Source: Marsupella aquatica
Lineage: Eukaryota; Plantae; Marchantiophyta
Direction: 5' to 3'
NCBI GenBank assembly: GCA_973895155.1
Contig: OZ316894.1
Location: 3,620,944 to 3,684,943 of the forward strand
DNA length: 64,000 nucleotides
Below, in pieces: positions 7,195-50,462 of this stretch (position 1 is the first letter of the stretch; every line of letters begins with the position of its first letter). The notes beneath the pieces are model-generated. The model had not been told where the DNA came from. It did not search any database and worked only from the letters and a program-made list of their open reading frames with translations. The position numbers and the translations under genes were made by a program.

Positions 7195-9548
7195 GGGAGT
7201 GATCTTGAAGGCCAACTATCTAGCGTGAGGTGGATCATCGTGGCTGCAACATTGACCAGGCCTTTTTTTGCGTTGGGCACTGTGAGTAAGGTAGTCTACG
7301 AAGGCGCGAAAGAGTCACGAGGAGTCGAGTTCAGCTACGGCAGTATTCACTTTAGATGTCCCAATGTGGTTGGCGTGAGCTGTAGGTGAGCTTAGCTGTG
7401 TGCACATTTCATGTTAGTCAGGTGGTCGGTGTTTTAGGCATTGCGGAACTTGATTGACCACCCCATGGCTAAGGTTTAAGGTGCGGACTACAACAAATAT
7501 GTGTTGTTACTGAAAGTGTTGGTGGTGAGCGACAACTGGTATTGTTTCAGCTAAAGGGAGCACATTGGAGCTTGTGTATGGACTTGCGACTGATTGTGGC
7601 TGCCTGCTGTTACAATCGCCGAATCAATCACGCACCCAATCGCCTGGAGCTCATTTGCCTGGAGTTCAGTGTTTAGGCCAGGTGAGTGACCACGACGAAG
7701 GAGCCGATCGCTCATTCTTTGTAAGTGCCCAACCTATTGTAGCTTAACTCTTGTTAAAAGTTGTCCAAGGCCTCGAGTTGCCTCGAATCAAGCTGCCAAA
7801 TACGGAGTAGACGAGCATCAGTTTTGCAACGCAACGCAGACTCCAATATCCAGCTCGTAGATTAGTTCTACTCTTGGTTTTTCTCAAGGAAACAACAGCT
7901 TGGATGTGAGGGCTAGTGGCAGTCACACTGGTGCGCCTGTCCCCGCGGGGCTTATGGGATTGGGAGGTTCCATTCATTTTGTTTCGTTTTGCTTCGTTGC
8001 CTTAGTTCTTTTAACTGTGTGATGCAAGCTGCATTTTATGATCGTGACTCGGGATAGGGTTTAAGGACCTGTGACCTTCATTTGTTGTAAGTGAGTAGTA
8101 AGACAAAGTGACTTCCCCCTGTGGGGGCCCAAAGTTTCCTTCCGCTCCCTTCCATCTCTCCCTCTTCTCCCTTCCCTCTCTCCCTCCCCTCCCTTCCCTC
8201 CCTAGCTGCCTGATGAGTGCCTCCTACTGCACCCGCCCTACCATCACAACCGCGGCCGAGCTATTTTTTCCTATCACAGATGAGCCTGGGACCCCAAACT
8301 CACATGATTGTCTGTGACTCAATGCCCGTCCGTCCTTCCTGAATCGCTCTCAGCTCAGGTTGAATGTGCTTTTTCAATCGATTGTGGGGATGGAGCTCCT
8401 CCAACAGCGGTTGGGTACAGAGTTTGTGGACTCTGTTTCAGTGTAGGCGAAAATGTTTTTGGTCTTGAGAGCTCATTCATTTGCACATTGTAATGCTTGT
8501 AAAATCTTTCAGAGTTTGTGAAGGTAAGATAGACTGTGGAGTCTCTCTGTCATTCTTCTTGTTCCAAGCCTACAACTCGTCCTTTTTGCCATGTCCTCTT
8601 CTGTATCCTGTTCTGTATCTTGTATTTTGTCACTTTAAATTGTCCATGATGTCGTGAGATGTTTCGTTCGTTCTAGTTCGCTCTGGTTCAAGTCATTACT
8701 CAGTAAGTCGAATCTTCCATGGTGTTAGAAATTTAAGACAGGCTTAACTAAATGGCAGTCCAATATTTGAGTTGGGGAAAATAATGAGGAAATGAATGAG
8801 GTACAGGATACACATTCCTGAAAATGACTGTGAGCTGCAGCTGGTCAGGTGGAGGGGATTGCAAACGCGCTACCATCAGCGACACATCTCAACCTTCCGC
8901 AGTGAGCGCTGTTGACATTCGGCTGGTTGTAAGTGTATTTCGAGCTCGACCCTAACTTGCTTATGAAAATTAAACACTTTGCTGTGAATATAAATACAGG
9001 AATGACATTTAAGGCCACCGCATGTTTGGTATTGGGTTCTCTAGAATTTTGGTACCCTCTTTCCTCACCTCAAATTTGAACAATGATGGTAGTCTCAGGC
9101 TCCATATTGCCTACAATCAGTGGTACTCAACGTGCGAGCTGTTGAGGCTGATTTTGAGCCGAGCTTACCTAAGCACACTTGGGAGCTGCTGCATTGACAG
9201 GTCTGAAACTCTGACGGGTTGGCTTAAATCCTTTGCTTCCTTGTGCTCTATTTTGGGGAGTTAATCAAGTTTGGCCTTGAAATGGTTACTTACACTTATG
9301 TTTGAAAGTTGACCTGTAACTCCCCTGAGACCGGTACTCCATCTGTTGGGTTCTTTCTAATTTTGGTAGTGTGTTTGTTGGGTTCTTTCAACTCCAGACA
9401 TATGAAATTTTAGCCCTCTCATTGTATCCACTGATGCGTACTCACTTATATTAAGCATCTTGACCTAGAAACTCAATACATAAACTCCAGGAGTCCCTCG
9501 GGACATGAGCCAAATTGTTTCAAAATTGGGAAGCTGCACCCGCACTAC

Positions 9549-9890
9549 TCAAACAAATGTGTTGGGCCTGGTGGCCTTGTAAGTCGTCTTTAGCTTTCGC
9601 GATGGAGGTTGAATCTTGCGGTACGTCAAGGGGAACTTGATCTTTGAATCATGGAACTGCTTGGTACTTTCTCGCTTGCACAGAGAGACAGGGACTGTCA
9701 TAGTCTTGATGATCTGGATGCAAGGGAACCGAACTCTATGACAAGAAGCCATCTCATCATACATCTACTCTACAGCTCCGTTCAACGTGGTATCACGATA
9801 TTCCTTGTACATGTTGTGATAACCTGTCCGACTCTGATACCTCACCCAGATACCGAAGTTCTTAATTGTGGTGGGCTTCTTTTTGAAGAT
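9549..9890 (-). pseudogene. RPL18A: 60S ribosomal protein L18a last-exon fragment captured in CACTA
   Basis: After an AG acceptor (9891-9892) it reads [62 protein letters not shown]...[13 protein letters not shown]. Premature TAG at 9765-9767. Upstream exons not seen. Confidence 0.93.
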
Positions 9891-10443
9891 CTGGTAGACA
9901 CATTATTCAGCATTTGCTAACTTCAAAACTAGAAGTGTAACACATTAAACAACAGAGAAACTCACAACATCCTCCTTTGGTCCTTTAGAGTCTGTACTTT
10001 GATTATGAAGTTTGACTGAGTTTCTGTTGACTGAAAGAATGTGACTGTGTAAGAGTTCCGTTTGGCAGTGGATTGGTTGAAGCACTTCATGCTAGTGTGT
10101 TGTCCACAGCTCTTCAACCAGCTTTTGTCTTCCTTGTCTTTCACCACTTACGATGACATCAATTCAGCTAAGACCATAGAAGGTTCCAAAGCATCTAACT
10201 TGTCAAATCGCAACTTGTTACATCAAGGACTAAGGTGTTGGGTATCAAAGGAGACAGCACAACAAACACGCTAAAAAGACTTCAGGACTGGGTTCAACAA
10301 GGTAGTGAAGGTGCTTACAGCCATAGTAAGTATGCATTCTGTATCTTTCTGTGTTGATGTGAGCTTGTGCATAATGGGAGTAAGTTGTAGTTGGCAAGAG
10401 TTCCATAAGGCCAAATATGAATAGATCCAGAAGTATGTATATG

Positions 10444-10482
10444 AACCAAGTGTAGAGTTGACTCTTTCTGAATATTGTAGTC
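10444..10482 (-). pseudogene. UBQ: Ubiquitin 13-codon fragment
   Basis: Encodes exactly DYNIQKESTLHLV (ubiquitin residues 58-70). The flanks are not ubiquitin. Confidence 0.85.
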
Positions 10483-11120
10483 TCTTTCTGAGGGCCAACG
10501 CCATGTGATCATGTACTTGCTCTATAAAGTTCTGAAGATATAAGCATTTTCTGTTAGACTAGGCAACTTGGGAGTTGGTAAGTGTCACCTGCATCTGAGG
10601 GGCTACACCGGGGGCATCAGTGGAGGTTCACTTGCACAACACGACAGCCAGTGAATTTTCTCTCTGGTGAAACCTGCAAGGTGAGACTTTCGGTCTTTCT
10701 GGATGAAAAAACAGGATCTTAATATGATTGATATACATGTCCGTCGAGATCATGGCTTTATCACCAAGCTCTTTGTCTTAGGAAACTCATAAACTCAGAA
10801 TCCAATATGTACTATGCACGTTTTCATGCTATACATGTGTATACTATGACCTGTAGTTGGAATTTTGTGTCATTCACTTGACAATAGGTACACTACTCGC
10901 GAACCTGTTTTTTTTCTTTTGAGGTGGTTTAGGGTTTGTGAGAATTTAGTACACATTATGTTAACTCTTTTGGCAGATACAGTCAGGGATATATGGAACA
11001 CAAATACCACCATTAGGCATCCTTGTTCACTGTTGTCCATGACTGCAGAGCTCCCAGCCTGTTACAATGCACCCTGGTCACCACCCTCCCCAGACCCAGC
11101 CCAAGGCATAGGCACTGCCT

Positions 11121-14100
11121 TTGCATCATCCCACAAGGATATCACGCCATGATAATAAGCTTTGGCAGCGTGAAAGGTTACGAACCAGACTTTCAAGAGC
11201 CAGTAGGATGAGATGTCCTTGTGCAATCTGCCAAGGATCCCGTACCAGGGGTCTGAATGAGGTTTGGTGGCATATCGCGGTTCATGGAAGACATCCACGA
11301 CATTGAGTTTGGAATGATCCTGCAGAGGAAGATTCTTCCGACGAGGAGTGGAGGTTAGAATTTGATGCTGCCAATGCTGCAAGACGGGCAAGTGAGGTTC
11401 TGCCTGGTGCATTTGAAAATGTTGTAGCTGGTCTCTATGGGTTGTCAGCTCTCCAATGGGATGGTGCTCAGGCAGCACCACGTGACGAAGGAATTCATGT
11501 GGAAGAGATGGTGAGAGAAATCTTCCAAGACTTGGATGCATTTCATGATGGGCTGGACAACGAAGAGGATACGGCTGCAGATGCAACTGTGCCCCCTGTC
11601 AAAGAGCCTCTTGATGAGTTTGAGATAGGGCAGGAAACCCCTGGGCATGATGGGATGTTTGGCTCTCCCCTGCAAATACAGGAAGGCAGGAAGTCTTTGT
11701 ACTCCGGTAGCAAATGTTCTAAACTGGGATTTGTCATCATGTTCCTGAACATTTGTGGCAACCACAATGTCCCCAACGTTTTGGTTTCTGAGTTGTTGGC
11801 ATTCTTGCGAACAACTGTGCTACCAGATGGTAATATTTTGCCCAAGAACATGTACAAGGCAAAAAGATGCATAATCTAATCTTGGATTGAACTATGATTC
11901 CATCCATGCCTGTCCTGATGGGCATGTTCTTTTCAGAAAGGAGTATGCAGAATCGTTGACATGCCCTAAGTGTGGGAAGCACAGGTATCGGAACTTAGGA
12001 AAGTCTATGGTTCCCGCCAAGGTACTTCGTCATTTTCCACTCATTCCCAGACTTCAGCGGATGTTCAGAAGCCGTGCCATCTTGGAGATGATGACTTGGG
12101 CAACTGACAAGAAAAGTGATGATGGGCTACAATGACATGCTGCAGATTCAAGGCAGTGGAAACTCATACATGAGATGTATCCCAAATTTTCTGCTGAGCC
12201 GAGGAATGTCAGACTTGGGCTGTCATTGGATGGGGTAAACCCATTTGGAGACAAGAACAACAAATTTTTGTGTTGGCCTGTAACTATTTTGAATTATAAC
12301 CTTCCTCCTTGGATGACTACAAAGCAATTTTTTGTTTGGTCCTACTGATACCAGGGCCAGATAGTGCTGTATCTGCCAACATAGATGTGTTTCGGGCTCC
12401 CCTAGTGGAGGAATTGAGAAAGCTTTGGGAGGAAGGAGTCCTCACATATGATGTCCTACATAGGCTTGGGAGGTTAAACCCATTCATCCTTAGAGCCATC
12501 GTCATTCTGACTATAGCTGACTACCCAGCCCATGGGATGATATCAGGCCAAACAACAAAAGGATATTGTGCTTGTACTATCTGTGGGCGCAATGTCACTA
12601 GTGAGTACTCCAGAGCCCTGTAGAAAGTGATATACATGGGCCATCGTCGTTTTTTGAAGGCAGATCACCCTTACAGAGAAAGACAGGCACTGATTGCACA
12701 CTTTGGCAATGAGATTGAGCAACATGGACCCCTGGCACGAGTGACCAAAGAGGAGATCAAGCAGTGGGGAGCACTGAGGGATGACTATATCAAACGAGGG
12801 GGCAGGGAAGATGGAGTGAGTGATCCAATAAAGCGATATGGTGTAAAAAGACTGAGCATATTGGACTTGGAGCTCAAGTATTGGAGGGTAAGCCTCTTGG
12901 AGTTGATGCTAATTGGGATACATGTTTAGGTTCAGAGCATGATTGTGCATTTGTTTTGAAGAGAGAGACTAAACTTGAGGCATTTGCTGACGCTTTTGCA
13001 TTGCAACGGTGCAGGAGTTTGAGCCAAGCAAACATAACATTGATGTTATGCACATTGAGAAGAATATTTGTGAGAGTCTACTCAGATTCTTGTGTGGAGA
13101 GAAAGACACTAGTTCAGTGAGATTGGATCTTGAACAGAGAGGAATGAAACCCCATCTTTGGTTGAGGCCACATGCCCACAGAGCTGATGTGCTCTTGAAG
13201 TACCAAGCGCCCTATGTTCTGACAGACATAGAGTGGCAACTATTTGTGCAGAGGTTGAGTTCTTTGAAGGTTCCTTCAAACTATGGCAGTGCTTTCAAGA
13301 AGCATATCATGACTAGAAAGCTTGGTAGTATGAAAAGCCATGACTACCATATGTTGATGCAACAGGTGTTGCCTTTATGTCTGAGGGGCCTGTTGCAGAA
13401 GCCTGTTCGTAATGTGATCATGCAACTCAGTGATGTGTTTCGTCGTATTTGTGTGAAGGTTTGGGATGAAACACACTTCCCACAACTGACAGAAGATGTC
13501 GCTCAGGTGCTGTGTGACCTGGAGATTTATTTTCCTCCCGCATTTTTTGATGTCATGACCCACCTACTTGTCCATGTTGTGGAAGAGCTACACCAATTTG
13601 GGCCTGTGAGTGCTCGTTGGTTGTACCCTTTGGAACGGTACATGAAGCTACTCAAAGGTCACGTGAGAACATATTACAAACCTGAAGCAAGCATGGCTAA
13701 AGGTTACATCAAGGATGAGACTCTGGGATATCTGACCGAATACATAGCACAATATGAGCATGTGAAGACCAAGGTGTGGAATTCTGATGAGGAGGAAGGG
13801 GTGATAGGTGAAGTATTGGAAGGGGCTGCAACCACAAAGAACCTGACCACATCTATGAGAGACTTGGCACATGACTAAGTTGTATTGCACAACACTGTGG
13901 TGATGGACCCCTGGATACAGTGAGTGCATACATGTGCTATAATCCAGTTCATGAGCTTAAATGTTGTGTGCGTGTGATTTTCTCCTTCAGCCTGTTCATA
14001 TTTACCCAAGCTAATGCTGTGTGGTTGTTTGATCAGGGAGTATGAGTCATTGAAGGCGGCCCATCCCACTGCAGGAACAACTTTTCCAGGTTTCATGGAG

Positions 14101-14805
14101 TGGATTAGAGTGGCAATTAGAGAGCATCATGAGACCCACCCAGACATGGATGCAGACGTTTACCTACTGTCTAATGCCCCTAGCCTAAAAGTGAAGACTT
14201 ACAAACGGATGAGAGCATATGGGAATCACTTTTGAGTGAAGGATGGTGACAGTGCCTACAAGGTGACAAATGACTGTGGGCTCATCACTGTATTTGAGCA
14301 ACAGAGCCACAATCACGACAGGGCCTGGATGGAGATGTGATATGTGGGAGAATTAGTTGACATATGGGCTCTGGACTATGGGGCGGTGTCCAGTCCTGTG
14401 ATTCTTATGAAAGGTTCATGGGTGCGGCAGGATTGGCTTGGTAATAGGGCTCCAATGAAGAGAGACAACGATGGTTTCTTGCTGGCCAATTTCAGAGGGA
14501 AATTGCCCGAATGGTCTGAGCCATTTGTGTTTCCCAGTCAGGTGGAGCAAGCTTTCTTCCTGGATGTGGAACACTCGCCAGGTTGGCGTGTAGTGTGTCA
14601 TAAACAGGCCAGAGAACGTCGGATGGAAGGATCAAACCTTGAGTTTCATTTACACTCTCATAGTGCCTTTGATCGTCGGCGTTCAGACCAAGTGCATGTA
14701 GTTCATGATAGCGGGGACTTCATTCCTGTGACAAGGGTAGATGCATTTGCTGAAGGAGGCAAGTTCAGAGATGCAGATCATGCCAACAGTGTGCCTGTGC
14801 CATGA
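11121..14805 (+). pseudogene. CACTA TnpD-type DDE transposase, decayed
   Basis: Motifs in order: CPCAIC...HIAVHG (transposase-associated domain), IHACPDGHVLFR...CPKCG...LRHFPLIPRLQRMF, RNVRLGLSLDGVNPF, ADYPAHG, DVMHIEKN, MKSHDYH, PAFFDVMTHLLVH...WLYPLERYM, EPFVFPSQVEQAFF. Multiple in-frame stops, a frameshift and small introns. Confidence 0.93.
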
Positions 14806-14957
14806 GTAATGTGAATTGTTTGCATGGACATTAGTGAGGGGATGTGTAATAAAGTAATTCTGAAGCAACACAGATGTATGGATGGATGCCTGGTGATTAT
14901 GGTTGCATTGTGTTATACAGGGTGACCATAGATGACATGTTTTTGTGGTCCAATAGG

Positions 14958-17900
14958 ATGGAACAGAGTGACACAGAGATGTGTGAGTATGAAAGGAAAG
15001 CTATGGAACAACAAGCATACGTGAAAGCCAAAATTGCAGAACTGGATCTGGAAAAGGATGTGGCTGAATTGTAAGGGAACGATTCTCAACTACACCCCTC
15101 CGCTGAGTTTGTGTGACATGAATAGTTCAATGTGGCACTGAAATTGTGACTATATCCTCATATTGGAATGTCGCAGAGCAACAGGTTTTTCAAAGAAACA
15201 AAAGGAGTACGCAAGAAGGGTGACCAACACTATCTCTGGGCCTGTGCGTCGGAGTGACATGTTGAGCAAGAAGGTCGTACCTACAATGGTAGAATGTGGA
15301 GATGACATGGATGCTGCGCAAGTGGGTGCAGACACTAGACAAGAAGATGCAGATGATGAGTATTTTCCAGAGGAAATGGATGAGGATGGGGGTTATGAAG
15401 ATGAATACATTGTAGAGCAGCCCCAAAAGAAACAGGTAAGTAGTTTTCCCAACAAGCTAGGTTTAGAGTTAAAAACTCTTGTTGAGAGGTTTCATATGTT
15501 CAGTACTACACCCTATGTACCTTGCTTAGTTCCTGACATTGTAGTTGGTGATGTGATGCAGCGTCCTGCCAGTTCTGTTTTGCCTGCAAAGCCTGTGCAT
15601 GCACCATACCAGCAGGGGGGCTGACCTCTGATCAAGGTTGGTGAGGTGGTAGTAGTGGTAGATCCCAGGCTGGTGCCCAATACTATGGCAGGGGGCAAGC
15701 TCTAGGTTATGCCCGTGGTAGAGGCAGAGCAGGTCCAAACCCACAGTCTCGTGGGTATGGACGTCCACCTCAACCATGGGGATGTGAGTATATATCTATA
15801 TGCCAGTTATTTGTGAAGGCATGGCACTCCTGAATTTCAGACTGCATATCAATTTTTGACATTGTTTGGGATGTATTGGATTCAGACAACATGAAATTCT
15901 GTCCACCTGCCATTGCATGCAGATTCTGCCAAACCTGATTGGGCAAATGCTGGTAATGATCAGTTCCAATGTTCACAAGGACAGACATGGGTTGAACCAG
16001 GTTGGGAGGATGGTGGTGGGTCGTGGAATGAACAAGGTTGGGAAGGTGGTGAAGGTACTTGGCAGGGATTTCAAAATACAGTACCTACAAATGCTGGAAG
16101 AGGGGCAGGTAATGTCTGATCTTGTCAGCAATGGAAGAACTCATTATATGTGGAGTCCATTGACGTGGGGGGGGATTCTGCACATGTATAATAATAGAAA
16201 ATGTATGTGTGCAGGTTGGACAGTCGAACCATCAACTCAAGTATTCACTAATGCCCCTATGCAGATGCAGCACGGAAGGGGGCCAGGTATGTTGGTGAAT
16301 GTTCATATGTTTTCCTATAGTTTGTACTTATTTTTAATACATATGTTTGCACACACATACCTAGAAAGTGACATCATCCGGCCCCTATACTAGACTGGAC
16401 AGGTGGTCCAGGGTCACAACAATTCCAGAGTGCAGTCCCTGCACAGGCATCTACAGGCAGAGCTACATGTATGTATGTTTGACGAATTTTTCTTGAAGTG
16501 AAGCATTGAATGTTGCCGTCATCCATTCTGCTATATGTAGTTCTCAAGCATGAATGACATTGTATTTTCCCAGGTGGCTTCAGAACCCCAGGTAGGGTGA
16601 ATGAAGGGGTGGCCAATACAACGCCCAGTACTACCAAGAGCAGTGCACGAGGGGAGGTGACAAAGGGCATGCTGATTTGAAAGCTGAAGTGTTGCGTTGG
16701 CTAGATGTGAGTGTTATTAATTTTAAAAAACAACATCCAAAAGATTGGAAAACTGTATGTGAAAATGTTGCTGCCAAATGGAATTATGTGGGCAGTGATG
16801 ATGGCGTGGACATAGGTTGCCTAGAGAGTACAGCAGGTAAAATCATAAAGCAAGAGAGGTGGAGAATGCATAAGGCTTGGAAGGAAGGTGGGGAGAAGCC
16901 AAATATGCCTCCACCAGCCAGTTGTGATGATAAAGTGTGGGCAAGGTTAGTAGCTTATTTTGTAACAGATGCTTCGAAAAAGAAGAGTTCACAGATGACC
17001 GAGGCCAGGTTGAGTGTTCAGAACCCTAATCTGACAGGAAGGACCGGCACTGCACCAATAGCAAAATGTTTGGTAAGAATCAATGGCCTAGCTATGTAAT
17101 TTATGCTACACTATGTACTGTTTTTTAGTGTAAACCCATACATGTAAACTTTGTTTTTTAGTGTACGTTCCCTGAATAATAATGATAACTTGTGTTTGCC
17201 ATGCATGTGCAGAAAGCCCATTCAATTGGGGCAAAGCCCTTCAAAAGAAGAGTTGAGGGCTGAAATTGTGAACACCCGGGCTCAAGAGGGTGCATCTAAA
17301 TCCTCCAAGCATGTAAGTTATATGAGTTCTGATTGGTAATTGAATGACCTACGTTGAATTTTAGGTGTACACTGTATATAACATTGATTGTGCATATATT
17401 TCCCAACATTTCATATGGAGTGATGGAACCTATACCCCTGTGTCATGTAGGGAGGTGGATCTTCACTTACAGAGATAAGTGGTCGTTTGAAGGCTGTGGA
17501 AACATGTCTTCCAGAGATCAATGAACGTTTGAATTCATTGACTGACTTGTTCCATGTGAACTTCAAGACATAATGGAAGCTGTTGTGTCGGTGAGAGATA
17601 AAATTGATTCCAATTCTGCAGGAGTTCCATCATCACCACTTGAGATGGCAAAGTCGATGCACTCTTCTGGCATGCCAACGACATGTAGGCTTGAAAGGTA
17701 AGGCCTTTACAGCTGTGGGATATGATTAGTAAATGTATAGTTTGAATTGACATTGTTTGTTGAATGTGTTATTTTCAGTAACATATATTGTGGTTGTTGT
17801 GTCCATAGAGAATAAGACCTCGGGGGTCTCACTATATGGGGACCTCCCCATCACTTACGACGCTTTTAGGCCTCGGACCCCCTAAAATGTAAGATTTTTT

Positions 17901-18912
17901 AATTTTATTTTTTAACCCCTATAAAGTTGGAATATTCCAAGAATATTCCAAAAATTGGATTAAAAAGACCCTAATGTTATTATAAGTCTCAAAATTGAAT
18001 TTAAAAGACCCTATTGTTCTTTTACAAAAATTCTTAAGTCTTCCCTTAGCACCAATAAAATGACCCTATCATTCGTCTCACGTGATATGCCATTTTTGTG
18101 GAACTGAAACTCCCGAGAATAAGACAGGTGTTGCAGAGAAGAAGTATGAGAACCTGGAAAATACTCGTTGTAATTTAGAGGCAACAAAGTTGTAGTCTGT
18201 ACAAGCAACTTGTTTGACAGAGGGCAGTCAACCATGTTTGGATGAGGATGACATTGGCAAGGGAGTGGATGATATCAATGTTGGGGCAAATGAGGATATC
18301 AGCAACCATGACAATGATACCATTGAGCCAGATTCATGCTATGTAGATCTTGACTCCATTGCAGAGATAAATGATTTGCAGAATGTATCATTCTCAATGA
18401 TAGGTGTGCCTCTTGTTGAGATAAAACCAACCAAAGAGTTAGTTGGTATGACACTCCCAGGTGATGAACTTGCTACTGTGACAGTCCTAACAAAGGAACC
18501 TACTGAGCCTAGCTTCACTATTGTGAAGAGAGGAAGCATGCGCACACGAAGCAAGTCTGCTGGTGGGAGCACAGCCACGTCAAAGGTTTCATACAAACCT
18601 CCAAGAACGGTGCTGGCAGAAAAATCTAAGGTGGAAGTGGGGAAAGCACCTAATGCTGAGGGACAAAGTGGCTTGTTAGCTATTGATGAGAGTGGAACAC
18701 GAGTAGGATTTGGCAGAGTGCAGGTTGGTTCCACAACGTTCCATGGCAAGAGGATTCCCCCAGGTTATTCAGTAGTGTTAGTCACATTACTAGTGAAACC
18801 TAAAGCTGTCCTTCCCATTCCAAACACAAATGATGATCCTCCTCAAAAGACACTTGGAGATGCTATAGGTTCTTTGGTATTATGGCCAAGCAAGTTCATA
18901 GAGGATCCATAA
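14958..18912 (+). pseudogene. CACTA second gene (TnpA-like), multi-exon, decayed
   Basis: 16677-17099 reads W..VCENV..KW...RWRMHKAW...PP..CDDKVWARLVAYF...KKSSQM..AR (Ptta/En-Spm-like). 18214-18912 ends GFGRVQ...FHGKRIPPGY..V.V...AVLPIP...TLGDAIGSLVLWP (TNP1-like C-terminus). GT-AG introns lie between pieces. Confidence 0.8.
17819..18117. mobile_element. MITE (CTCGGG...CCCGAG family), 299 bp
   Basis: Ends CTCGGGGGTCTCACT / GAAACTCCCGAG. 8-bp TSD AATAAGAC at 17811-17818 and 18118-18125. Interrupts the last TnpA exon. Confidence 0.88.
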
Positions 18913-21900
18913 CAATGTCATGCCATTATTTGTTTGTAGTGTGAGTCATGTTATGTAGATTTTAGATGTCAAGAAGGAGTACAAGAATCATGTCCTCTTG
19001 GAGATTCATAGTATCATGCATGTGCTTTCAGTTATCTCATCCTGCAGTCATCAATAATGAGTTCCTATTTTGTCTGAATTACATTGATCACATTGTAAAC
19101 TATTCCATTGGAATTCAAATGATCTAAATTTTAGAGCAAGATAATTATGATTCTATTTACATCTTATGAATGTTTTATGTAGGATCTGCTTATATGATGC
19201 TTTGTTTCATGTGGATGTCATTCATGCTATGTTCATTTCTTGTATTCAATGTGTTATATTTCTAAAGTTAGCACATCAGGTTTCAATCTATGTATTATAA
19301 TGTGGAGTGCTCTCTCTCCTTATGAACTGTCCCCTGGGCCCTTAGCGTTACTAATACAGGGAGGACGTGCGAACGATGCAAGGGTATTTTTAATGTAATG
19401 CAAACTAATTTTTATAATAATTTTTAAAGTTGGCAACATCCCTATATATACATTTGACACAATATTAGTAATAAGGCTCTTATCAAATACATGTCACATT
19501 ACTCTTATGCAAGGGTACCCAAAATGTCAAGGACACGCGTCACTATATGGTTGGTACACATGTCATGACTTCATTGGCACACCTGTCCATATAGTAAATC
19601 ACACATTTAATTATTTGTTCTCCTAAGACAAGTTTGTGTGCCCCCTTATGGTGGGACAAATGGGTTTTAGTAGACATGTTTACTCGCATTTTTAGGAGTT
19701 GAGTCGGGAGTTGAGTAAATGTTGGGTCGGGATCTTTGGGTCCAACTTGGTTGGGGCGGGGGTTGGGGTTTAGGGATTGATGGGGGATTGATGGGGACCA
19801 TGGATCAATACCCCCTCCATAGCACATAAACAAACAAGATTACTTTTGAAATGGGTTCAATCAAACGGCCAGGTGTGTTTGTGTGTGTGGGGTGGGGGTT
19901 TTGTACTCCCTTATCATTGGGGTGAGGGAGGTATCGGGGGCTGGCCACATTGGGGTTCACACAACAGGGTTTGCGTGACCCTCCCTTGCATTCCCCCTGC
20001 TTCTCTGCAGTTTAGGTCGTTGGATTTTAGACTGGCCATAGCGATCATTTGCTTGTTTGGGCCGGGGTTTGGGCTGCATGCGGCGTTGGATTTCAGACCC
20101 GCCATAGCTATGTTTGTTTGTTAGGCTACACGCAGGGTCCGTCCCGTGTGTATTCTCTGCTCTTGCACACAGTGAACTTATTCTTTCGGCTCCTCGCTTG
20201 GCAAAGTGAGTGCATGCCACCCTCTTGCTACCCCGGGCTTGCTACTTTGCGCGGTTGCGTTAACATGTACATGCCGTGATCTGATGTAACCTCTTTTGAT
20301 ACAGGTTTTAAGGCGGGTTTTTATTTCAGTCTTGTGTAGCTGACAGTTTTTGCACATGTTCTCACACAGGACTTTTGGTTGGTGGACTCGGTGAAAGCCA
20401 AAGTGCAGGAAGCAAAACCTGCAGAGGAAGATGCTCGAGCTTGGAAGGTATTGCTTTGCATGATCTCTTTTTGTCAATGTAAGTGTTTTGCCAAAAAGCA
20501 GCGAAATGCTTCTGAAGATGAGCTTTTTTATTGCAGATTGCAAGCAATCCATTCTGCAATGAAGCCAGCAACAAAGTAACCTGCATTTGGACAGCGACCC
20601 GGGACAGCGATCAATCGATGGCTTGGCATGGCGTGGCATGCGCAAGGAGTAATGCTGTAAGATGACGAGGACCCAAACATTGTAAAGAATATTGAGGGAA
20701 GGACGAGGGGAAGGAGCCCTCAATACGCAAAACGGCAGCAGTTGAGTCCAATCATTCATTTGAACTGCCCCCGGAACTGCCCCGATAATTGCATGTTAAC
20801 AAGTGAGTTGCTATTGACTTTTCAACAAACAGTTCTTCCATTTGTGATGTTTGTGTCGAGGAGTTGGGCTTGACTTGTCTGCAACAATGCTTACAGTGTA
20901 CTCGTAGAATGTTTTGTGGCGAAAGAGATAGAATGTGTGGTCTGCGTCAATGTTTTCCTTGTTTCGATCAGGCTATCTATTTTCTGAGCCCAACGTCATT
21001 TCCATAGCTTTCCTATTATTTAGTAACGTAAAGAGCACTGAAGTAGCTCTTCATTTGCTTTGCTTGGGAATGTTCTATTTCATTGAGACCAGACCAAAGT
21101 TTGTGATGGCGCGCTTCCGCTTTGCTACTGCTGGCGAACATGTTTGTCGAGGATGACAGTAAACAATCCCATTAGTGAGAAGCACAGTTTTGGCACGAGG
21201 CACAGGAAGAACCTCTTGTATGTGATCAAGGATAGCCTCGTTTTTGGGAACCAGTCCGTCAAGCACTGCTCGGCCATCATGTTCGTCCCCACCACCGTAC
21301 GTCACTCCTCCTCACCTTGTCACAGAGTTGCGTTCTGTGGCTATTTGGAAATTCCTTCATTCATTAATTCCTTGCATGATTTATTAATTCCTTCATTCAT
21401 TGAAGGATTTGCCTTAGGCAAGAAGGCAGGCAGGAGTCCCGACAGGAGTTTGTCAAAGGCTACGGGCCACAAAGGAGAAGAGCTAAACGTAGGGGAGAGA
21501 GGTAGATCGAGAATCAGGGAAGAGTGTGTGGCATCAAAAGAGGTCAGCAAGTATGGAAAATTTCATTGTGACAACACTCAGTTATCTCTACTCAGTTAGA
21601 ATATTGACCAATAATATCTAGTAACTAACTGTCACTGCGTACATGACAGGATCTAGTCGGAGTTACATTAGCTAGAAGACAGTTTCTCATTGAAGGACGG
21701 TCGGCGTGTTTGACAAAAACAGATGTAAGCCACTATATTCCTCAATGTATCACACTGTAAACCCTTCTGCATTTCCTCAACTTGGATCTGATGATTGCGC
21801 ATTGCATACTGCGCGACTTTGTTAGTTGTGTACCACTGCATTGATTCTATGCCTTTTGTGCCTCTGAGTCTACCATTGTCTTAAAGCCTCAGTCTTCGCT

Positions 21901-22275
21901 ATCTTCTCCGTTGCATTGCCTTCTTTTGGTCAACATATCGCTCCAACTACGTTTGGGATTGCAGTGACTGTTACGTGTTCCTTGCAGGTTCCAAATTGAC
22001 TTCCACAACCTCTGCTTTTGTCTCATTATGGAAGGTGAAGTTTCCACCATTCCCAGGCATGTTCTTTAAGTTCTTGTTGTCTGTCAAATTTTGGGTAAAA
22101 TTGTTTATTCTCGGAACGCCATCAGTGTAGTTGAAGTCTACAACATGCGTGCCATGATCGCCATAGTGGGCGATGCTTGAGGCGAGCCGCATCCACATGA
22201 CATGAATCTTGCGAGATTCATTAAATTAACATACATAGAGCAGTCCAGACGTATCAGTTCAGGGTCCAACCGTAC

Positions 22276-23053
22276 CTATGGACTGGGTAAAGAGCTCTGC
22301 TCTAGCTGTGTTTAACCCTTGAAGATGAAGTTCTGGGTAATGCCCTTCAACTTCAGCGACAGCTCCAATCCGATCGAAAAGCGAAATTCCAGCTCCAAAA
22401 TCTTTCAGCTTCCATTCAGTCCAGATTTTGAGTCCATTGTCGGCCTTTGCCAATCTCCACCCTACAATTCCTGTCCGGGTCATCGTAACAGACTTGATTT
22501 CACATGAAATTATTTTGTGCTGAAATAATACCTGAATTAACACTGTCGTCAGAAGGTCACATATTTTTGCAATTGTTCTTTCAATTGCTTCTCTGCAACC
22601 AGTCACACTGAACGGTAAACCCAGAAGCAAATGGCCAATCATTTTGGGAGAATTGAGCTAGAAACACTATTATATAAAGTGAGGCTCAGCGTAGAGACCT
22701 TGCGAAGCAATGCCGTGGCTTCCTCCTCAGACAGAGGAACAGTCCCTAGCTCTAGCGGCGTGCAGTTCCTCTCCGACAATCCCAGCAACGAGGGAGGAAT
22801 TAGTATAATATGCTTAGTACCCTCATTGCCAAGACTTTTCTCACCAAAATTCCAAAGATGGCCACCGCGCGAGAGTATTTGACGACAAGTTGTAGTTGTG
22901 CACCCCACAAAATGAAGCCGAGCTCAAAGAGGCGAGCGCTGAGGGGGACGAGGAGGACGAGGACGTCGCTCTCGCACGGAAAGAAGGTGATGAAAGGGCG
23001 GGCGAGTGGCGAAGCAAACTGCTGGAGCAGCAGATCAGGGACGCAGCAGCCAT
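22276..23053 (-). pseudogene. RAF2: Captured RAF2/SDIRIP1-like (plastid pterin-carbinolamine dehydratase-fold) gene, exons 1-2 with intron
   Basis: ATG at 23053 starts a Ser-rich transit peptide (MAAASLICCSSSLLRHSP...). After a frameshift: NFGEKSLGNEGTKHIILIP...LSEEEATALLRK, then GT donor (22698). Exon 2 reads VGWRL...WKLKDFGAGISLFDRIGAVAEVEGHYPELHLQGLNTARAELFTQSIG, then GT donor. Final exon not seen. Confidence 0.85.
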
Positions 23054-24717
23054 AGCTCGATTTCCTTCAGCTTTGTAGATCTCATCGAGCACCGCTTCCT
23101 ATATTCTCTTCGCCTTCTCTCTGCCTCCTACACACAATCATCCGGGGAGTGTTCTTTTATTCGGAGACTGTAGAGGGCTCCAAGTGATTTCAACCCGGTT
23201 TGGACTTGTCCCCGGCTCAGTCCAACTTTGCCCAGTCTAGCAGACTATCTCTTTCGCTGGTTTATGAGATCAATTTTCTCCAAGTCTCCAGCTGCTCTAC
23301 CTTGGTATCCACAACTTGACGCCAACGTACAGTAGTTGGCCGGTATTTTTGGCAGGTAGCAGGACTAAAATTATCGTAGAATAGATGCTAAACTATGGTA
23401 TCCTGTTGATATTTTGTAAGATTCTCTTTGTTGGTGGATTTGTACAGGTCTTGAAGTTTAATCAAGATTAGAATACTATCAATGAATGCCACCCCTGGTC
23501 AAGTTATTCTCGACACTTCTATACTATATTACAGGTTTGTTTTCTAATTGCTTGTTATCTCTGTTTTGTCAACTGCCAAGAAGTCCAGGACTGTGGCTAA
23601 TGCTTTTTGCATCTCCATTCATTCATTGTTGTTTGTTTGGAGCAGGCTTGTTGTTGTCAACTTCCAATGTGGATCTAGTTTCCGTCCCTGACCCGTTCAA
23701 GCAGCCAATGCAAATACACAAGTAAGTAAAGAATCAGTGGTGCCTCTTCTTGCAGTCAGATGCCCTACTTTCATTTTGCCGTGCATTCCTGATTGTACGT
23801 TGTCTCTTGTACAGTCGATTCATGCTTGTTGTCTTGTATGAATCCGCTTACAAACAGGGCTTTGTGTGTTTGCTCAGGTAAGCATTTCTTTATGTTTTGT
23901 GAATTAGGCTTTGTCTTTCTGTTGTAGAAGTAGGACCGTTTGCAGGTCCCATCAAATCCAAGGAGACCATTGGGGAAGTAATGCCCTCAGTGGAGATTGT
24001 CAGATTTCATCCCTGACAATCTAGCGCTCTTTGGAGGCGAAGCAGGTGCAGGTAGCCTGGGAGGGGGGGGGGGAAGATTGCTTAGAGCCTTGCCAGATAG
24101 GATTTGGGTGGTCCATGGAATGTTGCTATTCATGAATGGTCGAGCCTCTCTGAGCGAGTCTGTGAGTAAATAAATTTTGATCAGCCCATTGCACATGTCG
24201 AGGAGAGGGATTGGAGTGATGGGCCTGGCCCCGACTGCACATGGACCAAGCACAAACTGGGACAAGCTAATATGTTGGGACAAGCTAATTCAGGACAAGC
24301 TTAAATGGCCATGTGCAGATCTCATACTCTCTTGTGCTTACGCTGAAACCAGAGTCCTTGCATGCAAAGGGTACGTCCCTTCCCACCCGAAAGGAGAAAG
24401 CCGCAATGGATCTTAGACAAGCCAATTACCATGAGAAATGGCCGGGATGGGGCAAGGCCCTTGTGGAGTTGGTCTGGTGGATGCGGTCTTGACATATGGG
24501 CTTCCTTAGGCTACTTGTAGGAGGCCAAAACTTCCCAAATCCCCATGTTGAGCAATGTCATTGAATGGGTCGTTACAAAGTAACCCATAATTGGTTGAAG
24601 TGTTATGATTGTGTCCATTTTGATTGTGGTGCTTCTCTCTTGTCTTGTGCTATGTTTGCAGGCCTATGCCCCTAGCATATGTCAATTGGTTAGGGAATTA
24701 AACGTTGGACATAGAGG

Positions 24718-27700
24718 ATGCCGGCTGCCACTGTATTTCAAGCAGACTCTGAGTCAGGGGAACGGAAACCCCTGACATCATATAGCTACAAGATAGGTGA
24801 AACCTTTTATGATGCTAGAAAGAACTTGGAGTCAGGTTTTGACTTCGAGTTCCATTTCATGGACATCAACCTTGCTTGTAGAATGTTGGAGAAATTTGAG
24901 AGGTATAATCTGGTAGAGGATTGTGGTGGGAAGATTGTCATTATCCCAAAATACCCCAACAATTTTGTCCAAGGAGATGTGCAGAATGGGTCACAACAAG
25001 TCCTTGGAAGTAGCCATGCATCCAATGGACCTGGTAGCACATCTTGTGATACTCCCACAATAGATGAACCCTCTAACCAGCATGTAGGTGGAGCTCCATC
25101 TCAGGAGGCCCAACCTGCAAGTACCCCATCCCAGGATGGCCAGCCTATTGGTGGAGCCCCATCCCAGGAAGTTGAATCACAAGTCAGCCTAGAGTCTGAA
25201 TTAATGTCTCATGACCTCAAAATAGCATGGGAGACTTCTGTGACGAAGTTGATAGAGTGGATGACTTTTATTAAGTGTGTGGACCACAAATGGAAAGTCA
25301 GAACCTGGGACAAGGATGGTGTGTCTCGTGGGCATATTGAGTGTTGTGAATGTGACTTCAGATATCAAGCAGTTGCATGTAGCAGTGTCAAGGGTGTGGA
25401 TAAAACTATGGTCAATAATGTGTTTACAAACTTCAGAGTGAAACATTTGCCATCAAAAAAGCATGCTCGACGTGTAGCATCTAATAGGGGTGAGAAAGTG
25501 GATCACAGAGAGATTTCTCAGAGGGCTGAGGCTTGTACTCTGAATGATAGAGCCATACTTGATCAACATGTCAAGATTGTGGAGAAGATAAACTCAGCAC
25601 AAATTGCTGGTGGGCTTGTTGGGTGTGATACCTTTACAGTAATAGGTGATGTGGACAAAGAGCCCCTAGAGTTGATGAAGTTCAAACTTCGTTGTGAGTT
25701 TTGTGCTGAAAACTTGACATTGATTCCAAAACAACGCAATTTGGAAACAAATTTGGAAGCCCATGTGGGAGGCTTAAGTCATCTTAACTATGTCATGAGA
25801 AGTCAAAAGCCTGCTAGGGGTAACCCAGTGCACAGTGGAAGGCCTGGAAGACCTCGTGCACCAGATGGAAGGGATGTGAAAATAGCTGGGTTCTTAACTC
25901 GCCCCTCAACTGGAGGAGCTTCCAGTTCTAGTTCAAAAGACAAAGGTACTCTTGACAATCTCTCTTTGCTATGCTGGGGTCTCTGGCGTGATGTGGTGAA
26001 ATATGGTTCAGATACCAGGCCTATCAAGGAAATTTTAAATGATCAGCTTAAATTAGATGGGAACTGGTATGCGGAGCCCATAGTGAGGGCAGAGGTGTGG
26101 TGTTTGACGACTCAGGAAAACTGTGTGATCTCTGGTTTATTTAGACACAAAGAGTGTAGACGAATTTCGGAACTTGGTGGTGGGTTTATAGACTTATCCT
26201 GTATGCAATGTTTTAGCATAAAAACAGAGCAGGACTTTCGACTCAGAGTTTACAGGGAGTACAAAGCTCTTGAAAAAAGAGGTTGTAGAACTACTGGTAA
26301 AGGTAGGCGCTTAGACTATTTGACTATTCCAGAGGTCCAATACCAAGCTAAAAGTTATAGGAACCAAATTTTGAGAGAACGAAAGTTACAGAGAATCTTG
26401 AGTCACAAGCTACTCATGGCAAAGGCTCTAGTCTCCAGCATTAGTGAAGTGTGTCTTCACTATGAGGAACCAAACAAAGCAACTGTATTGAAATTCTGTC
26501 ATTCAATAATATTGGCACACAAACGAGGTGCCTTTGGTGGGAGAGGAGCTCTGTGGGATATGTTATCAGACATAGCACAGAACATCAATAGGGAGAAGAC
26601 AGGATATCGTTTTAGGCCTGGAACAAAACTTTTTTGCCAAACACTGTTTTTACATGGCGGAAGACGTGTAGTTGATTGTCTTGCAACCAATGGAATTGGT
26701 CCCACTCTCAACACCCTTCAAAGGGATAAGAGAGGCATGGTAGTGTTTCGTGCTGGAATTCATGTAGAGCAATTTCAGTTTATTGCGGAAGTATTTTCCA
26801 AATTGAAGGCTCGATTAAATATACATGGACCCATTCCATGCTTTTTGGCAGAGGACGAGACTTGTGTGAAGAGGACTGTGAGGTGACTATTCACTGCCTC
26901 CTCTTGCTCTAGTCATTCTTTTCCTTCAGTATGTATTTTTGTGCTACACAAAAATATTGAACAAGAACTAATGAAGAAACCACCTGCTATTGGTTGCAGA
27001 TGGCTGCCAAAACATGATACTCTTCTTGGATTTTGTGGGACAAAAAAGGATCATGAGTGCAGTGTTGGCTTGGAGATCATAGTGGGGGAAGGAGAAGTTG
27101 GCTTCAACAACATTGCAGATGCATTTGACAATTATGTTATAGCTCACCAGGCAAGGTGTTTGATAGTAAATGCCCTTGTTGCTGGATTCCCTCGATTGTG
27201 CATACTGGGGATGGGCACCTGTAACAAGTTTGATGCTCCATGGGTCAGGCGACAATGGAACAGCCTAGCCTCACTGTGGACAACTCATTGCCTAGAGTGT
27301 GTGGGGCCATTATTGGGTCATGCAAGCGATGGGGATGCACGAAGGAGAAAGCTTATGTTGGAAGACTACTCTGGAAGTGGAATACCAGGGCCAAGGCAGG
27401 ACCTAAGGTGGGAAGCTTGGAAATTGACCCACTCTATGACCACTACTGGACCATTGATCCATGCATATGGATTGCATGATCAAGATTTTATTCATAATGG
27501 GAAGAAGTTAGTGAACCCATTGGATTCTACTTCTCGTATTTTGAAATTAGGAGCGGAAATGGCAAACCTGAGTCACATCATATCCTGTTACAAAGTGTAC
27601 CTGAACAGTGATCATGGCTTGAATGAAGAGGACAAGTCAAGGAAAGATAGACAAAATTGGGCTAGTGCACAACGACTCTGTAGTCGCAAAGTACAGTCCT

Positions 27701-29415
27701 CCTTACGGATGCTTCGCCAACGTGGTGATGCAAGAGTTGAACAGACTCTTGGGACAGAAGTTTACACTAGGATATGTGCAGACTACATTGACATATTTCT
27801 GAATACTAGTCTGAGTTTGCGACAGAGGATTGTCCATTGTGGGAAGGTGGGGTTCTTCTTTAGACTATGGCGTCAATGGTGCTTTCATGGAAACCATTCA
27901 GTGGGAGGGAATACACAACCAATCAGTTTCACAAAAAAATGCATTCCCATGCAAAGTTTCCTTGACATTCAGATGTCAGTTCATTTTGTGGTCCTGTTGG
28001 TAATCCAATTCAGAGACAATTTTCGACATCTTCCAGTGCCATTGCATTTGACTGGGTCAGATGCTTGTGAGCAGTTTTTTTCTGCTGTAGGAGGTATGAA
28101 TGGTCATGAACGAAGTTATGACTTGGCTGAGTTAGTAGAATGTGCTACCAATCGAAATCGATTGGCTGCAATGGATCTGGCAGAAGGAATGATGGGTGCA
28201 GGGAAGAGTCACAAGAAACATGAAAACATTTGGATGAAGCTCACTACAATCCCAACAGGAATTCCTACTGTAGCAGATCAAATGGACTATATAGGGATTG
28301 AAACCAATGGAGAAATAGTGATTGCACTGCAAGAAGGTTTTCAGCTTGCCCAAAATGCATGCACTGAATTACAAATGAACCCTTCCACATCTTGCAAAGA
28401 CAAGGTGTGGTGGAATTCCCCATGGAAGATGGAGGCTAAAGGGGTCAAGTTTGGTAGTTGGTGTGATGTGAATGTTGATACATTAGTAGATGGAGGGGCA
28501 GATGTGGAGGAATCTGAGGAAGGTGAAACAACCTCTCATGAGCCTGCATCCTCATCTACTTCAACAGAAGTTGTAGAGCCTAAGGACTCTGAGTTACCTG
28601 TCCCAACAGAACAACTTTTGATATATGCAGACCCAGATGTAGAGGGAGTTGTTGCTCAAATGGAGGCCACCATGGGGATCATGCATTCTGACTTGATATA
28701 TGGAGCAGCAACACAAGATGTGAAGCCAACCGTTGAATACCAAAATCGGTCCATTTACAAAAGTACTTTGGTCAGCCAACTGACCCACAACCCTCTCCTC
28801 AGCAAAGACAGATTGACTCGGATAAAGCAAAATCATTACTTCAATAATTTAGTGGACAAACCCAATGTTAGGGCAGGTGTTCAAACAATGTTTGTAACAG
28901 TAGGTTCAGATTGTGGAGTACTATTCTTGGATGATACATACAGTGCTCGTGAAACTAGAAGTTCATAAGCAATTTCACGAACATTGAGAGGAAAAGGACA
29001 AAGAAAGAGAGGAAGCAGCAGATCAGATGATTTTGTTCCAAATCCGAAGAGGCCAAGAGGTGCAGCTGTGGCAATGTATTCAACTACAACACCAAAATAT
29101 ATGTGGTGGATAGGCAGAATACAAAGTATACACAAAAAATATGATGGGAAACAGGACAGAGCAAGAGGTGAATTGGATTTGCTTGATAGGCCTGGTGGTG
29201 AGGAGGCATGTAAAATTATGTTCCAATGGTTTTCTCCAATTGGAACTAGTAGGCATAAATTTGCCTACAATGTGTGTGATCCACAATTTATCGATTTGGA
29301 CTGTGTCATATCAACAGTCCACTTGACAGTGGATCCACTATGCCCAGGAGTTTTTCAATTGCATCCAGATGATGCAGTTTCTCTTGATAATTTTGCCAAA
29401 AACAAAATTCAGTAA
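24718..29415 (+). CDS. P-element-like DDE transposase: exons 24718-26882 + 27000-28968 (1377 aa); same frame continues past one TAA to 29415 (1526 aa)
   Basis: GT-AG intron 26883-26999 joins the two ORFs in frame (VR|WLPK). Ordered motifs AEDET, ASDGD, DQDFIHNGKKLVN, DRQNWASAQRLCS, GSDACEQFFS parallel the P/THAP9 DE, D, DxxHxxK..N, DK/R..A..+S and QD.LE.FF motifs. N-terminal CxxC...H...H zinc fingers. Confidence 0.8.
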
Positions 29416-29740
29416 TCTTATATATGTAACAGGGTAAGCAATTTTCAGTGTTTATGCATGTATCTTTTAAGTTTCTGATTGCTATGAAAGGCTTTTGAAT
29501 GAGATTTTGATCCTGCCTCTGATATTTCAATCCTTGTTGGATCACAGAGTTGACAGGGAAATTATCCACCATGTCTAAGTAACAATTTCAGTCAAAGAAG
29601 ATGTTATGGTATTACTCCCATATTTCTCAGTATTAATTTTCTTGTGTTATGAGTATTGTCTAGAATCAATTATTAATGTGTGGTTTGATAAATCAGGTTC
29701 AGAAGAAATTGCCAAGAACTTTGCTGATCATTTGGTGTGA

Positions 29741-29840
29741 AGGATGAAGGCATTACCTGGTTTGGATAGGTCAGGATGAAGGCATTACCTGGTTGGTTAG
29801 CTCAGGATGAAGGCATTACCTGGTTGGTTAGCTCAGGATG
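29741..29840. repeat. ~31-bp tandem repeat x3
   Basis: Unit AGGATGAAGGCATTACCTGGTTGGTTAGCTC, downstream of the transposase ORF. Confidence 0.9.
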
Positions 29841-30758
29841 GAAGAATTTAGCATGAGTGTATATGCAATTGTTCCTCTAGGGTACTAGAGCATCATATTC
29901 ACTTTCTTAGATGTAGTATTAGTTTAGTTCACCTTTCGGCATGATGTCTATAAGTAACCTGATATATTATTATCTGGTACTAGTTTTGTTTACCTATATA
30001 AAAGGTGTAGCCTGTGTAAGATCAAGTTTTTGATGCAAAACAATATCAATATGCATAATCTATATTTATGATTCTAAATCGTTTGCATGTTTATATAGCA
30101 TTCATACTTTTAAAAAGTCAAGGGTGTTTTCAATTATTTGGAAACCTCTTTTATAAGTTACTCAAGGGTCAAATTTAATAGTAAAAATTAATATTTTTAT
30201 ATTAACAAGAGATATTTTAATGAAGAAAAAAATATTAAGAAGGGGTACAAGGGGGGGGGTCTGTTCTCAGGGGGGTTCACTTAATATACTAAGAGTGAGG
30301 GCCCAGGGGAACTGTCCCTCTGTGTTCATTAGTCATGGTTACAACTTGCATGTGAACCTTATTAGTTATAAACATGAGTATATAGAGTCCCAAATGGTTC
30401 TGTTGTGTGACCCGGGGGTCTCCATTGGTCTCTCCTGTGACAATAAATGGTCACACGCTAGTCGTTGTTGAATGCGAGTAAGTCATGTATTTGACTTACC
30501 ATGTGACTCGTTAAAGTCATATTGCAGTCACGTAGAAACAAGACTAGACTCCACAATAAAGTCACAGATCAGTCACAAATGGGTATCAAGCAAGTTGCAA
30601 AGCCCAGTATCAATAGTGACTTCCATTTTTTGGTCTCAACTTTTGCAACTCCAAGGGTCACAGTGTGGGTCAAGTCACATTGAGTCACAATGAAGTCACA
30701 TGAGCCAAAATGAGTCACATATTGCAGTCTCAGCTCACCTCGGATTCTTCTAGTGTAC

Positions 30759-35918: not shown

Positions 35919-36091
35919 CCCTGGGCCCTCAGTCTTAACTAATATGTGGAGAACGTATGAACGCTCGAAGGGTAGTTTTTATTCGTAATAAGGAAACTTT
36001 TAATTGTAAAATGTAAATAACAAGGGGTAAACACGAAAAGGACCCGATCGTAGGGGGGTCCACTTCTTTTACATGGAGTGAGGGCCCAGGG
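35919..36091. mobile_element. 173-bp MITE sharing TIRs with the P-like element
   Basis: Ends CCCTGGGCCCTCA / TGAGGGCCCAGGG. 8-bp TSD GTGCAAAC at 35911-35918 and 36092-36099. Confidence 0.92.
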
Positions 36092-50121: not shown

Positions 50122-50462
50122 CTCGGGGGGGTCACTACATGGAGGGTCATACATCACGTGCGACGCTTTAGGGTTTGACCCCCCTAACTTATAAGTGAAA
50201 AATAGTTTTTTGCAAAACCCTTTCTTTCTTTAAATTTTGACATTTTTTATTAAAAAATCCCTAAAAACTTTAAATAAAGTATTTTTTACAATTAAATAGG
50301 TCTATGTGTTCTTTATAGTAGACCAATCAATAAAACATGCCCTATGTGTTCTTCCACCAAACTTTGGAAGTCTCCCACCACACCCATTTAAATGGGCCTA
50401 TACTTTGTCGCACGTGATGTGCCACTTCCGTGGAAGTGACCCCCCCCCCCCCCCCCCCCGAG
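50122..50462. mobile_element. MITE (CTCGGG family), 341 bp
   Basis: TIR CTCGGGGGGGTCACT / AGTGAC(C)nGAG. 8-bp TSD GGATAAAT at 50114-50121 and 50463-50470. Confidence 0.92.

Follow-up and report, generated by a model that had tools for sequence, protein, structure and literature searches.

The 64,000-nucleotide stretch of the Marsupella aquatica assembly GCA_973895155.1 analysed here (contig OZ316894.1, positions 3,620,944–3,684,943 of the forward strand; called the window below) carries an 11-kb P-type element at 19332–30308, which is bounded by perfect 11-bp terminal inverted repeats (TIRs) and an exact 8-bp target site duplication (TSD). In all likelihood, this element is a DNA transposon of a divergent branch of the P superfamily that lacks THAP and has long been resident in liverworts and ferns and probably in mosses. 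The assignment is carried by the fold of the transposase core, by the structure of the element ends, and by contigs in which the element is missing from its site.

Ends, target duplication, and empty sites

The boundaries of the element are defined by the following features:

19324..19331, no strand: left TSD, GAACTGTC, 8 bp, at the empty-site joint in sequencing runs X2, X3, and X6
19332..19342, plus strand: left TIR, CCCTGGGCCCT, with the subterminal motif ACGTGCG at position 34
30298..30308, minus strand: right TIR, the perfect reverse complement of CCCTGGGCCCT
30309..30316, no strand: right TSD, GAACTGTC, at the empty-site joint

A first-pass annotation made from the letters of the sequence had reported the 11-bp perfect TIR and the exact 8-bp TSD. 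Both TIR copies were located, at 19332–19342 and 30298–30308, and GAACTGTC was found on both flanks, 8 bp being the sole matching length when direct repeats of 1–14 bp were tried. Four pairs combining a perfect 11-bp TIR with an exact 8-bp TSD were present in the window versus none in 20 shuffled windows. Contigs of three of the four sequencing runs compared (X2, X3, and X6) contained the empty site, where 19323 is joined to 30309 and the 10985 skipped bases equal the element plus one TSD. Since the flank of the element is itself a repeat belonging to a CACTA element, these empty sites may derive from other copies of that element. A further joint leading from 19330 to 30325 with seven other letters was considered as an excision footprint and rejected, as it is explained by diverged CACTA copies. 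Contig depth in the sequencing runs was not taken as copy number. Rfam gave no matches across 19200–30500, and the 3′ region of the element includes four copies of a 31-bp repeat at 29730–29854. We are highly confident that a divergent P-type transposon really inserted at this locus, probably in recent times.

The ends had also been called atypical, which proved right for their first letters: in the window and in the related loci described below they start with CCC or CTC, in contrast to the CA-starting termini that characterize the canonical P/THAP9 branch. However, every end examined finishes in a 3′ G, thus the terminal 3′ G is retained and the ends are less odd than claimed.

The predicted fold of the transposase core and its match to P transposase

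The core fold was modelled on a homolog, P0027, from the helix-turn-helix (HTH) to the RNase H core, using a 56-sequence alignment (mean predicted local distance difference test score, pLDDT, 88.5; predicted template modelling score 0.86), and the model was compared with known structures by Foldseek and by VIA-align over Foldseek's top 1000 chains. Foldseek placed the Drosophila P transposase structures 6p5a and 6pe2 at the top (E 2.6e-10 and 6.2e-10; TM by target 0.73 and 0.71), followed by RAG1 with E 2.8e-4. In VIA-align, the model matched 6p5a with Z 23.6 over 411 residues at a root mean square deviation (rmsd) of 3.6, and the other structures scored Z 10.2 (Transib), 9.2 (RAG1), 8.9 (Hermes, rmsd 8.3), 8.4 (ISCth4), and 7.5 (Tn5); mariner was also well behind P. 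The comparison with P, hAT, and Mutator-like element (MULE) structures that had been proposed with the annotation therefore put P-element transposase first, far ahead of the hAT and MULE-related enzymes, and the placement in the P superfamily is supported by this fold match (Z 23.6 against 10.2 for the next structure).

The relationship could also be detected by sequence. A profile built from 34 family members, more distant ones among them, matched P transposase with E 2.1e-6, its best stretch spanning P residues 95–247. In the profile alignment, family residues were in register with D230, DTPH, and D528/E531 of P transposase, D230 and D528/E531 following the usual numbering of the catalytic residues. 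Pfam recognized the P HTH in 3 of the 56 members of the first profile (A1), these being the rotifer ones (best E 1.3e-4), and in three of 36 further relatives. When the member P0204 was searched singly against the PDB sequences, its PHD finger was the sole part to give a match. In the Atlas, the nearest named clusters were P transposases, with unnamed Basidiomycota clusters just above them (score 0.95). HTH and coiled coil precede RNase H in the family, as in the P superfamily, and the enzyme is predicted from the models to have the architecture of a P transposase, that is, a coiled coil, an HTH, and an RNase H domain split by a helical insertion domain. A 17-nt staggered cut at the element ends is another feature of the superfamily. 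P elements are described with 7–9-bp TSDs and a D(2)H motif in the available part of PMC3698922. The element shows the P-superfamily features that can be tested, and not those of the THAP-bearing branch.

The transposase gene and its late stop

The transposase gene occupies the 3′ part of the element:

24718..26882, plus strand: exon 1, containing the catalytic D713 (26854–26856)
26883..26999, plus strand: GT–AG intron of 117 bp, supported by the Calypogeia alignment and a contig of run X6
27000..29415, plus strand: exon 2, from the RNase H core onward
28966..28968, plus strand: premature TAA at codon 1378, past the whole catalytic core, which would remove the last 148 amino acids only

The open reading frame (ORF) had been predicted as two exons, intact save for one late TAA, and the exons, the 117-bp intron, and the stop at codon 1378 were all reproduced. 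The spliced product has 1377 amino acids up to the TAA and 1526 if it is read through. The closest named protein, from Calypogeia fissa (1529 amino acids), is 56% identical end to end, and its alignment is free of gaps across the splice junction, which supports the intron. A contig of run X6 crosses the intron at exactly the spliced length, for which RNA and an intronless copy are both possible sources. Position 28966 reads G in most of the contig depth of four runs (343.8 of 343.8 in X2, 1465 of 1675 in X1, 3810 of 4112 in X3, and 836 of 942 in X4), suggesting that the stop is private to this copy or to the assembly. Homologs, including that of Calypogeia fissa, are open at codon 1378.

Exon 1 encodes, in this order, a predicted ubiquitin-like domain (amino acids 1–82), two C2H2-type fingers, an AT-hook-like GRP motif, a Cys/His module, a coiled coil, the HTH region, and D713. 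Exon 2 continues with the RNase H core (D832 and D884xxH887), the helical insertion domain, D1076/E1079, and an acidic stretch, and ends in a conserved C-terminal domain of about 150 amino acids. The motifs listed in the first-pass annotation were all located in the window protein in the order given there. A BAH-like nature of the C-terminal domain, considered from its look, was not adopted, as PDB sequences, Pfam, and the Atlas (best 0.75) gave it no support. The 259 proteins examined included 127 that covered the core, or 124 once duplicates were removed. In these aligned cores, D713 and E1079 were kept without exception (124/124 each), D832 in 121, and the DxxH motif nearly as strictly (D884 in 121, H887 in 122). 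As the 124 cores were gathered by profiles of the same family, these counts characterize the family and do not amount to independent proof.

The claimed lack of a THAP domain was borne out by Pfam, which detected no THAP in exon 1 (E ≤1) or in 56 members (E ≤0.1), and the predicted ubiquitin-like domain and the zinc modules stand in its place. The conserved Cys/His pattern differs from that of THAP. The N-terminal model (pLDDT 72) contains a beta-grasp, ubiquitin-like domain (best Z 8.5, rmsd 2.5, 77 residues aligned; Foldseek weak) and a long helix at 537–570; THAP structures were absent from its fold lists, which the ubiquitin-like domain filled. More distant members carry SAP, PHD finger, Tudor, and PF02902 as accessory domains (P0110, P0204, P0191, P0009, P0077, P0337, and P0342), suggesting that the non-catalytic parts are often swapped.

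Relatives in land plants and marine animals

The profile search returned 7236 representatives at E ≤0.001. The named land-plant relatives came from Calypogeia, Riccia fluitans, R. sorocarpa, and Adiantum nelumboides, and the named marine-animal ones from Amphiura, Mytilus, Clytia, and Desmophyllum; rotifers matched weakly, and seed plants were absent from the named matches of the three family searches. A FastTree tree was built from 65 chosen cores and a second one from 115 sequences. In the 65-core tree, all six named land-plant proteins and the window protein fell in one clade of 24 (support 0.995), where the latter groups with Calypogeia (1.0) and then with Riccia (0.977), the deepest branch of the clade being a second Calypogeia lineage. 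A separate clade unites the named marine animals, and the 115-sequence tree agrees with that of the 65 cores. By these relatives alone, the host would be taken for a liverwort. The earlier proposal of a divergent P lineage in a land plant is supported, but the lineage is not confined to plants, having relatives in marine animals. On the sequences at hand, the tree fits old vertical descent in land plants.

Among prokaryote genomes, one of 21 pattern matches was a relative (L081, 33% identity), which lies on a 2.1-kb contig in an archaeal metagenome-assembled genome and is likely eukaryotic contamination. Viral contigs gave 18 pattern matches and no relatives.

Miniature elements and other copies

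A relaxed scan detected five elements with C-Y-C…G-R-G ends in the window, namely the large one and four of 173–341 bp, and the five have five different exact 8-bp TSDs. The small elements are the following:

35919..36091, plus strand: 173-bp miniature with CCCTGGGCCCT ends and TSD GTGCAAAC, 76–82% alike to both ends of the large element
48535..48779, plus strand: 245-bp miniature of the CTCGGGGGGGT end subtype, TSD CAGCAAGT
50122..50462, plus strand: 341-bp miniature of the CTCGGG subtype, TSD GGATAAAT
17819..18117, plus strand: 299-bp miniature of the CTCGGG subtype, TSD AATAAGAC, inside the CACTA element

From metagenome contigs 80 related loci were retained, 12 of which matched the terminal pattern, and 38 were scanned for TIR and TSD. 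One of them, L003, is a complete element of 6096 bp with a 26-bp TIR and an 8-bp TSD, and it agrees with the 245-bp miniature in all of the terminal 15 bp. Another, L001, has a 15-bp TIR and unmatched flanks. Each contains one open, intronless frame of more than 1500 codons, that of L003 having 1520. An ACGTGCG-like motif about 35 bp inside is common to many ends in the window and the loci, and the TSD is 8 bp in all six cases (the five window elements and L003), a number too small to yield a target consensus. Consequently, the other copies with the same ends and 8-bp TSDs that the earlier annotation led one to look for do exist, as the four miniatures and L003. Many diverged copies were also present in the sequencing runs.

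The enclosing CACTA element and the gene cargo

The surroundings and the interior of the element include two further features:

3075..30755, plus strand: enclosing CACTA element, recognized by its CACTAGAAGAA ends and 3-bp TSD (TAC)
22223..23216 (approximate), minus strand: host gene fragment carried as cargo, of pterin-4a-carbinolamine dehydratase fold (Pfam PF01329, E 1.6e-9)

About 440 bp separate the right end of the P-type element from that of the CACTA element. The latter is about 16.7 kb long without the insert, contains broken transposase genes (DUF4218, Transposase_24), and hosts both the large P-type element and the 299-bp miniature. A second group of CACTA-like transposase fragments, whose family was judged by eye, lies on the minus strand at 44723–47368.

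In the cargo, a 5′ region is followed by three exon-like blocks, which have donor sites and two introns between them; a third intron begins but the final exon is absent, and one of the acceptors is non-canonical. Its start is rich in Ser and Ala and resembles a transit peptide. The cargo was identified to the level of the Pfam family alone, and it may be like RAF2, a plastid Rubisco chaperone. In contigs of X1, X2, and X3, position 22205 is joined to 23217 and the cargo is missing, indicating that some copies lack it. Its capture at the DNA level, as in Pack-MULEs, would be the simplest reading by analogy. In the rest of the 5.4-kb 5′ region (19950–22200 and 23300–24700), short charged ORF pieces were seen between splice-like signals; they may represent either an accessory gene that has decayed or a spliced leader. 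In X1 only, contig depth falls at 20704–21455.

Other features of the window

An 1828-bp element at 41311–43138 has TIRs of about 550 bp, which are 87% alike and start with ATTCAGGGAGACG, and an exact 8-bp TSD, GGCAAGTG; its ends are unlike those of the P-type family, so it belongs to another superfamily, possibly of MULE or foldback type. Two overlapping intervals, 6318–7018 and 6496–7018, show 11-bp inverted ends and a 7-bp flanking repeat; they lie in a tandem-repeat zone and may be an artefact. A direct repeat of about 1.4 kb (6–1473 and 53486–54882, 86–93% identity) possibly represents long terminal repeats or another dispersed repeat. The minus strand of 31794–33470 contains a 558-codon ORF with internal repeats and weak matches to the tetratricopeptide repeat.

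Weighing the assignment

Several observations weigh against the assignment to the P superfamily. The modelled protein was P0027, about 45% identical over the core, and not the window's own protein, and identity in the structural match to P transposase is 13%. The first profile (A1) gave no real match against PDB sequences and missed P transposase, and the window's three ORF segments had no significant Pfam match, including no P domain. The trees contain no canonical P, Galileo, or THAP9 sequence, so that they are not rooted by a recognized P element, and most of their members are unnamed. A TIR pair with an exact TSD was found in only one of the 38 scanned loci (L003). The GTP pocket belongs to the same list. 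Eight GTP contacts are listed for the Drosophila P transposase in the accessible text of PMC7776569, which also has the terminal 3′ G contacting GTP in the complex. Three of the eight are identical in the window protein (the equivalents of S409, D444, and D528), while the others are changed (K385 to G, K400 to N, V401 to W, F443 to I, and N447 to L). Among 124 relatives, D stands at the position of D528 in 94 and at that of D444 in 42 only; the V401 position is occupied by W or F in 91. Since this mapping rests on low-scoring HMMER stretches, an altered use of GTP is a lead only.

The alternative that survives best is a superfamily of its own, P-like in its working and sister to P together with the fungal and rotifer P-like elements. 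The 13% identity and the missing Pfam P domain speak for it, as do the size of the family (7236 representatives), its long branch (1.54) to the rotifer-type group in the 65-core tree, the changes at K385, V401, and N447 in the pocket, and the different ends and DNA-binding region. However, the family matches P in the domain order, the fold of the insertion domain, DxxH, the D..E at the third site, the 8-bp TSD, and the terminal G, and Pfam P matches emerge gradually among the more distant members, so that we hold a separate superfamily to be improbable.

An 8-bp TSD is typical of hAT, and both hAT and MULE, which are common in plants, give TSDs of 8–9 bp; MULEs usually have a 9-bp TSD and long TIRs. 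The element could accordingly be a hAT or a MULE whose motifs are merely P-like, having an 8-bp TSD as in the former and a captured gene fragment, which the portion of PMC8277862 at hand gives as typical of the latter. This is very improbable, as Hermes (Z 8.9, rmsd 8.3) and ISCth4 of the MULE-related IS256 group (Z 8.4) fall far behind P (Z 23.6), which refutes it unless the model is wrong; moreover, no hAT or MULE domain was among the 15 Pfam families matched by 56 members, and the TSD is 8 bp, not 9. A domesticated host gene with repeats around it by chance, as the near-intact reading frame and the intron might suggest, is scarcely credible in view of the empty sites, which refute it, the absence of TIR and TSD pairs in 20 shuffles, the four miniatures, the many diverged copies, and the nesting in CACTA.

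As a P-type transposon, the element probably belongs to a known superfamily, and what sets it apart is its land-plant host, its invisibility to Pfam, the predicted replacement of the DNA-binding head, the cargo, and a possibly altered GTP pocket. A transposase dimer would grip the element ends; the HTH would probably contact the TIR, and the zinc modules would probably contact the ACGTGCG motif, which lies about 35 bp further in. Excision would be carried out by D713/D832/E1079, and the terminal 3′ G would be joined into target DNA with an 8-bp stagger. The miniatures may be mobilized by the same enzyme or by that of a sister family. The copy in the window would have jumped into the end of a CACTA element; it likely acquired part of a host gene, and its late stop is mostly absent from other copies. 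A more far-reaching version, namely an ancestral land-plant, Pfam-invisible P branch that moves in liverworts, captures genes, has exchanged THAP for a ubiquitin-like and zinc-finger head, and transposes without GTP through a remodelled pocket with an aromatic residue at V401, appears unlikely to us.

The literature searched, which lay outside most subscription journals, Repbase Reports, and Dfam, yielded no paper on P elements in bryophytes or ferns, and the available portions of PMC6431247, PMC8616336, and PMC13182070 contain nothing on P in bryophytes. A 2022 review lists Tc1-Mariner, hAT, Sola, MuDR, PIF-Harbinger, and CACTA as the TIR superfamilies of land plants, and P is not listed in the part available (PMC9033089). 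A 2025 survey of 1007 plant genomes, which used Pfam profiles for 17 superfamilies including P, reported seven as recently active and none of them was P, as far as its accessible sections go (PMC12973397); a family without a Pfam P match would explain this. P is found among the Repbase superfamilies, with host ranges not given in the accessible text (PMC4455052). We lean towards the view that no description of the land-plant branch exists so far in Repbase, in Dfam, or in the literature beyond that searched. Pfam-based pipelines would overlook the family, whose proteins are labelled "hypothetical" or "unnamed" in databases. If it were recognized, the mobilome of bryophytes and ferns would gain a superfamily, and a set of small elements, four of them within this window, would gain an owner. 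Intact single-frame copies such as L003 make it testable whether the GTP cofactor and the long staggered cut are general to P-type elements or specific to the THAP branch.

Comparison with known systems

As in Pack-MULEs and Pack-TIRs (available part of PMC8277862), a host gene fragment with introns lies between TIRs, but what carries it here is a P-type element that codes for a transposase rather than a MULE. The fungal P-like transposases (RepeatMasker class "P-Fungi") and those of rotifers resemble the family in that its nearest Atlas clusters are from Basidiomycota and that the rotifer proteins carry the Pfam P HTH; the rotifer proteins, however, are separated from it by long branches. P elements are rare in fungi according to the accessible text of PMC5751038, which gives them for Pucciniales and Allomyces; no fungal protein was named among the matches of the family.

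With Drosophila P (6P5A, 6PE2), THAP9, and zebrafish P-like transposases, the family shares the predicted HTH and an RNase H domain with a helical insertion domain, DDE plus DxxH, the coiled coil before the HTH, and the acidic stretch after the core. The 8-bp TSD, the terminal 3′ G, and non-autonomous derivatives are likewise common to them (available parts of PMC7776569 and PMC3698922). In contrast to Drosophila P, no THAP was detected, and a predicted ubiquitin-like domain, two C2H2 fingers, and a Cys/His module are found instead. The protein of about 1526 amino acids, compared with one of 87 kDa (accessible text of PMC7776569), has an extra C-terminal domain. The element differs further in its length of 11 kb with gene cargo and in its land-plant host. 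Finally, the TIRs of the family are 11–26 bp long and start with C-Y-C, whereas the TIR of Drosophila P starts with CATG.

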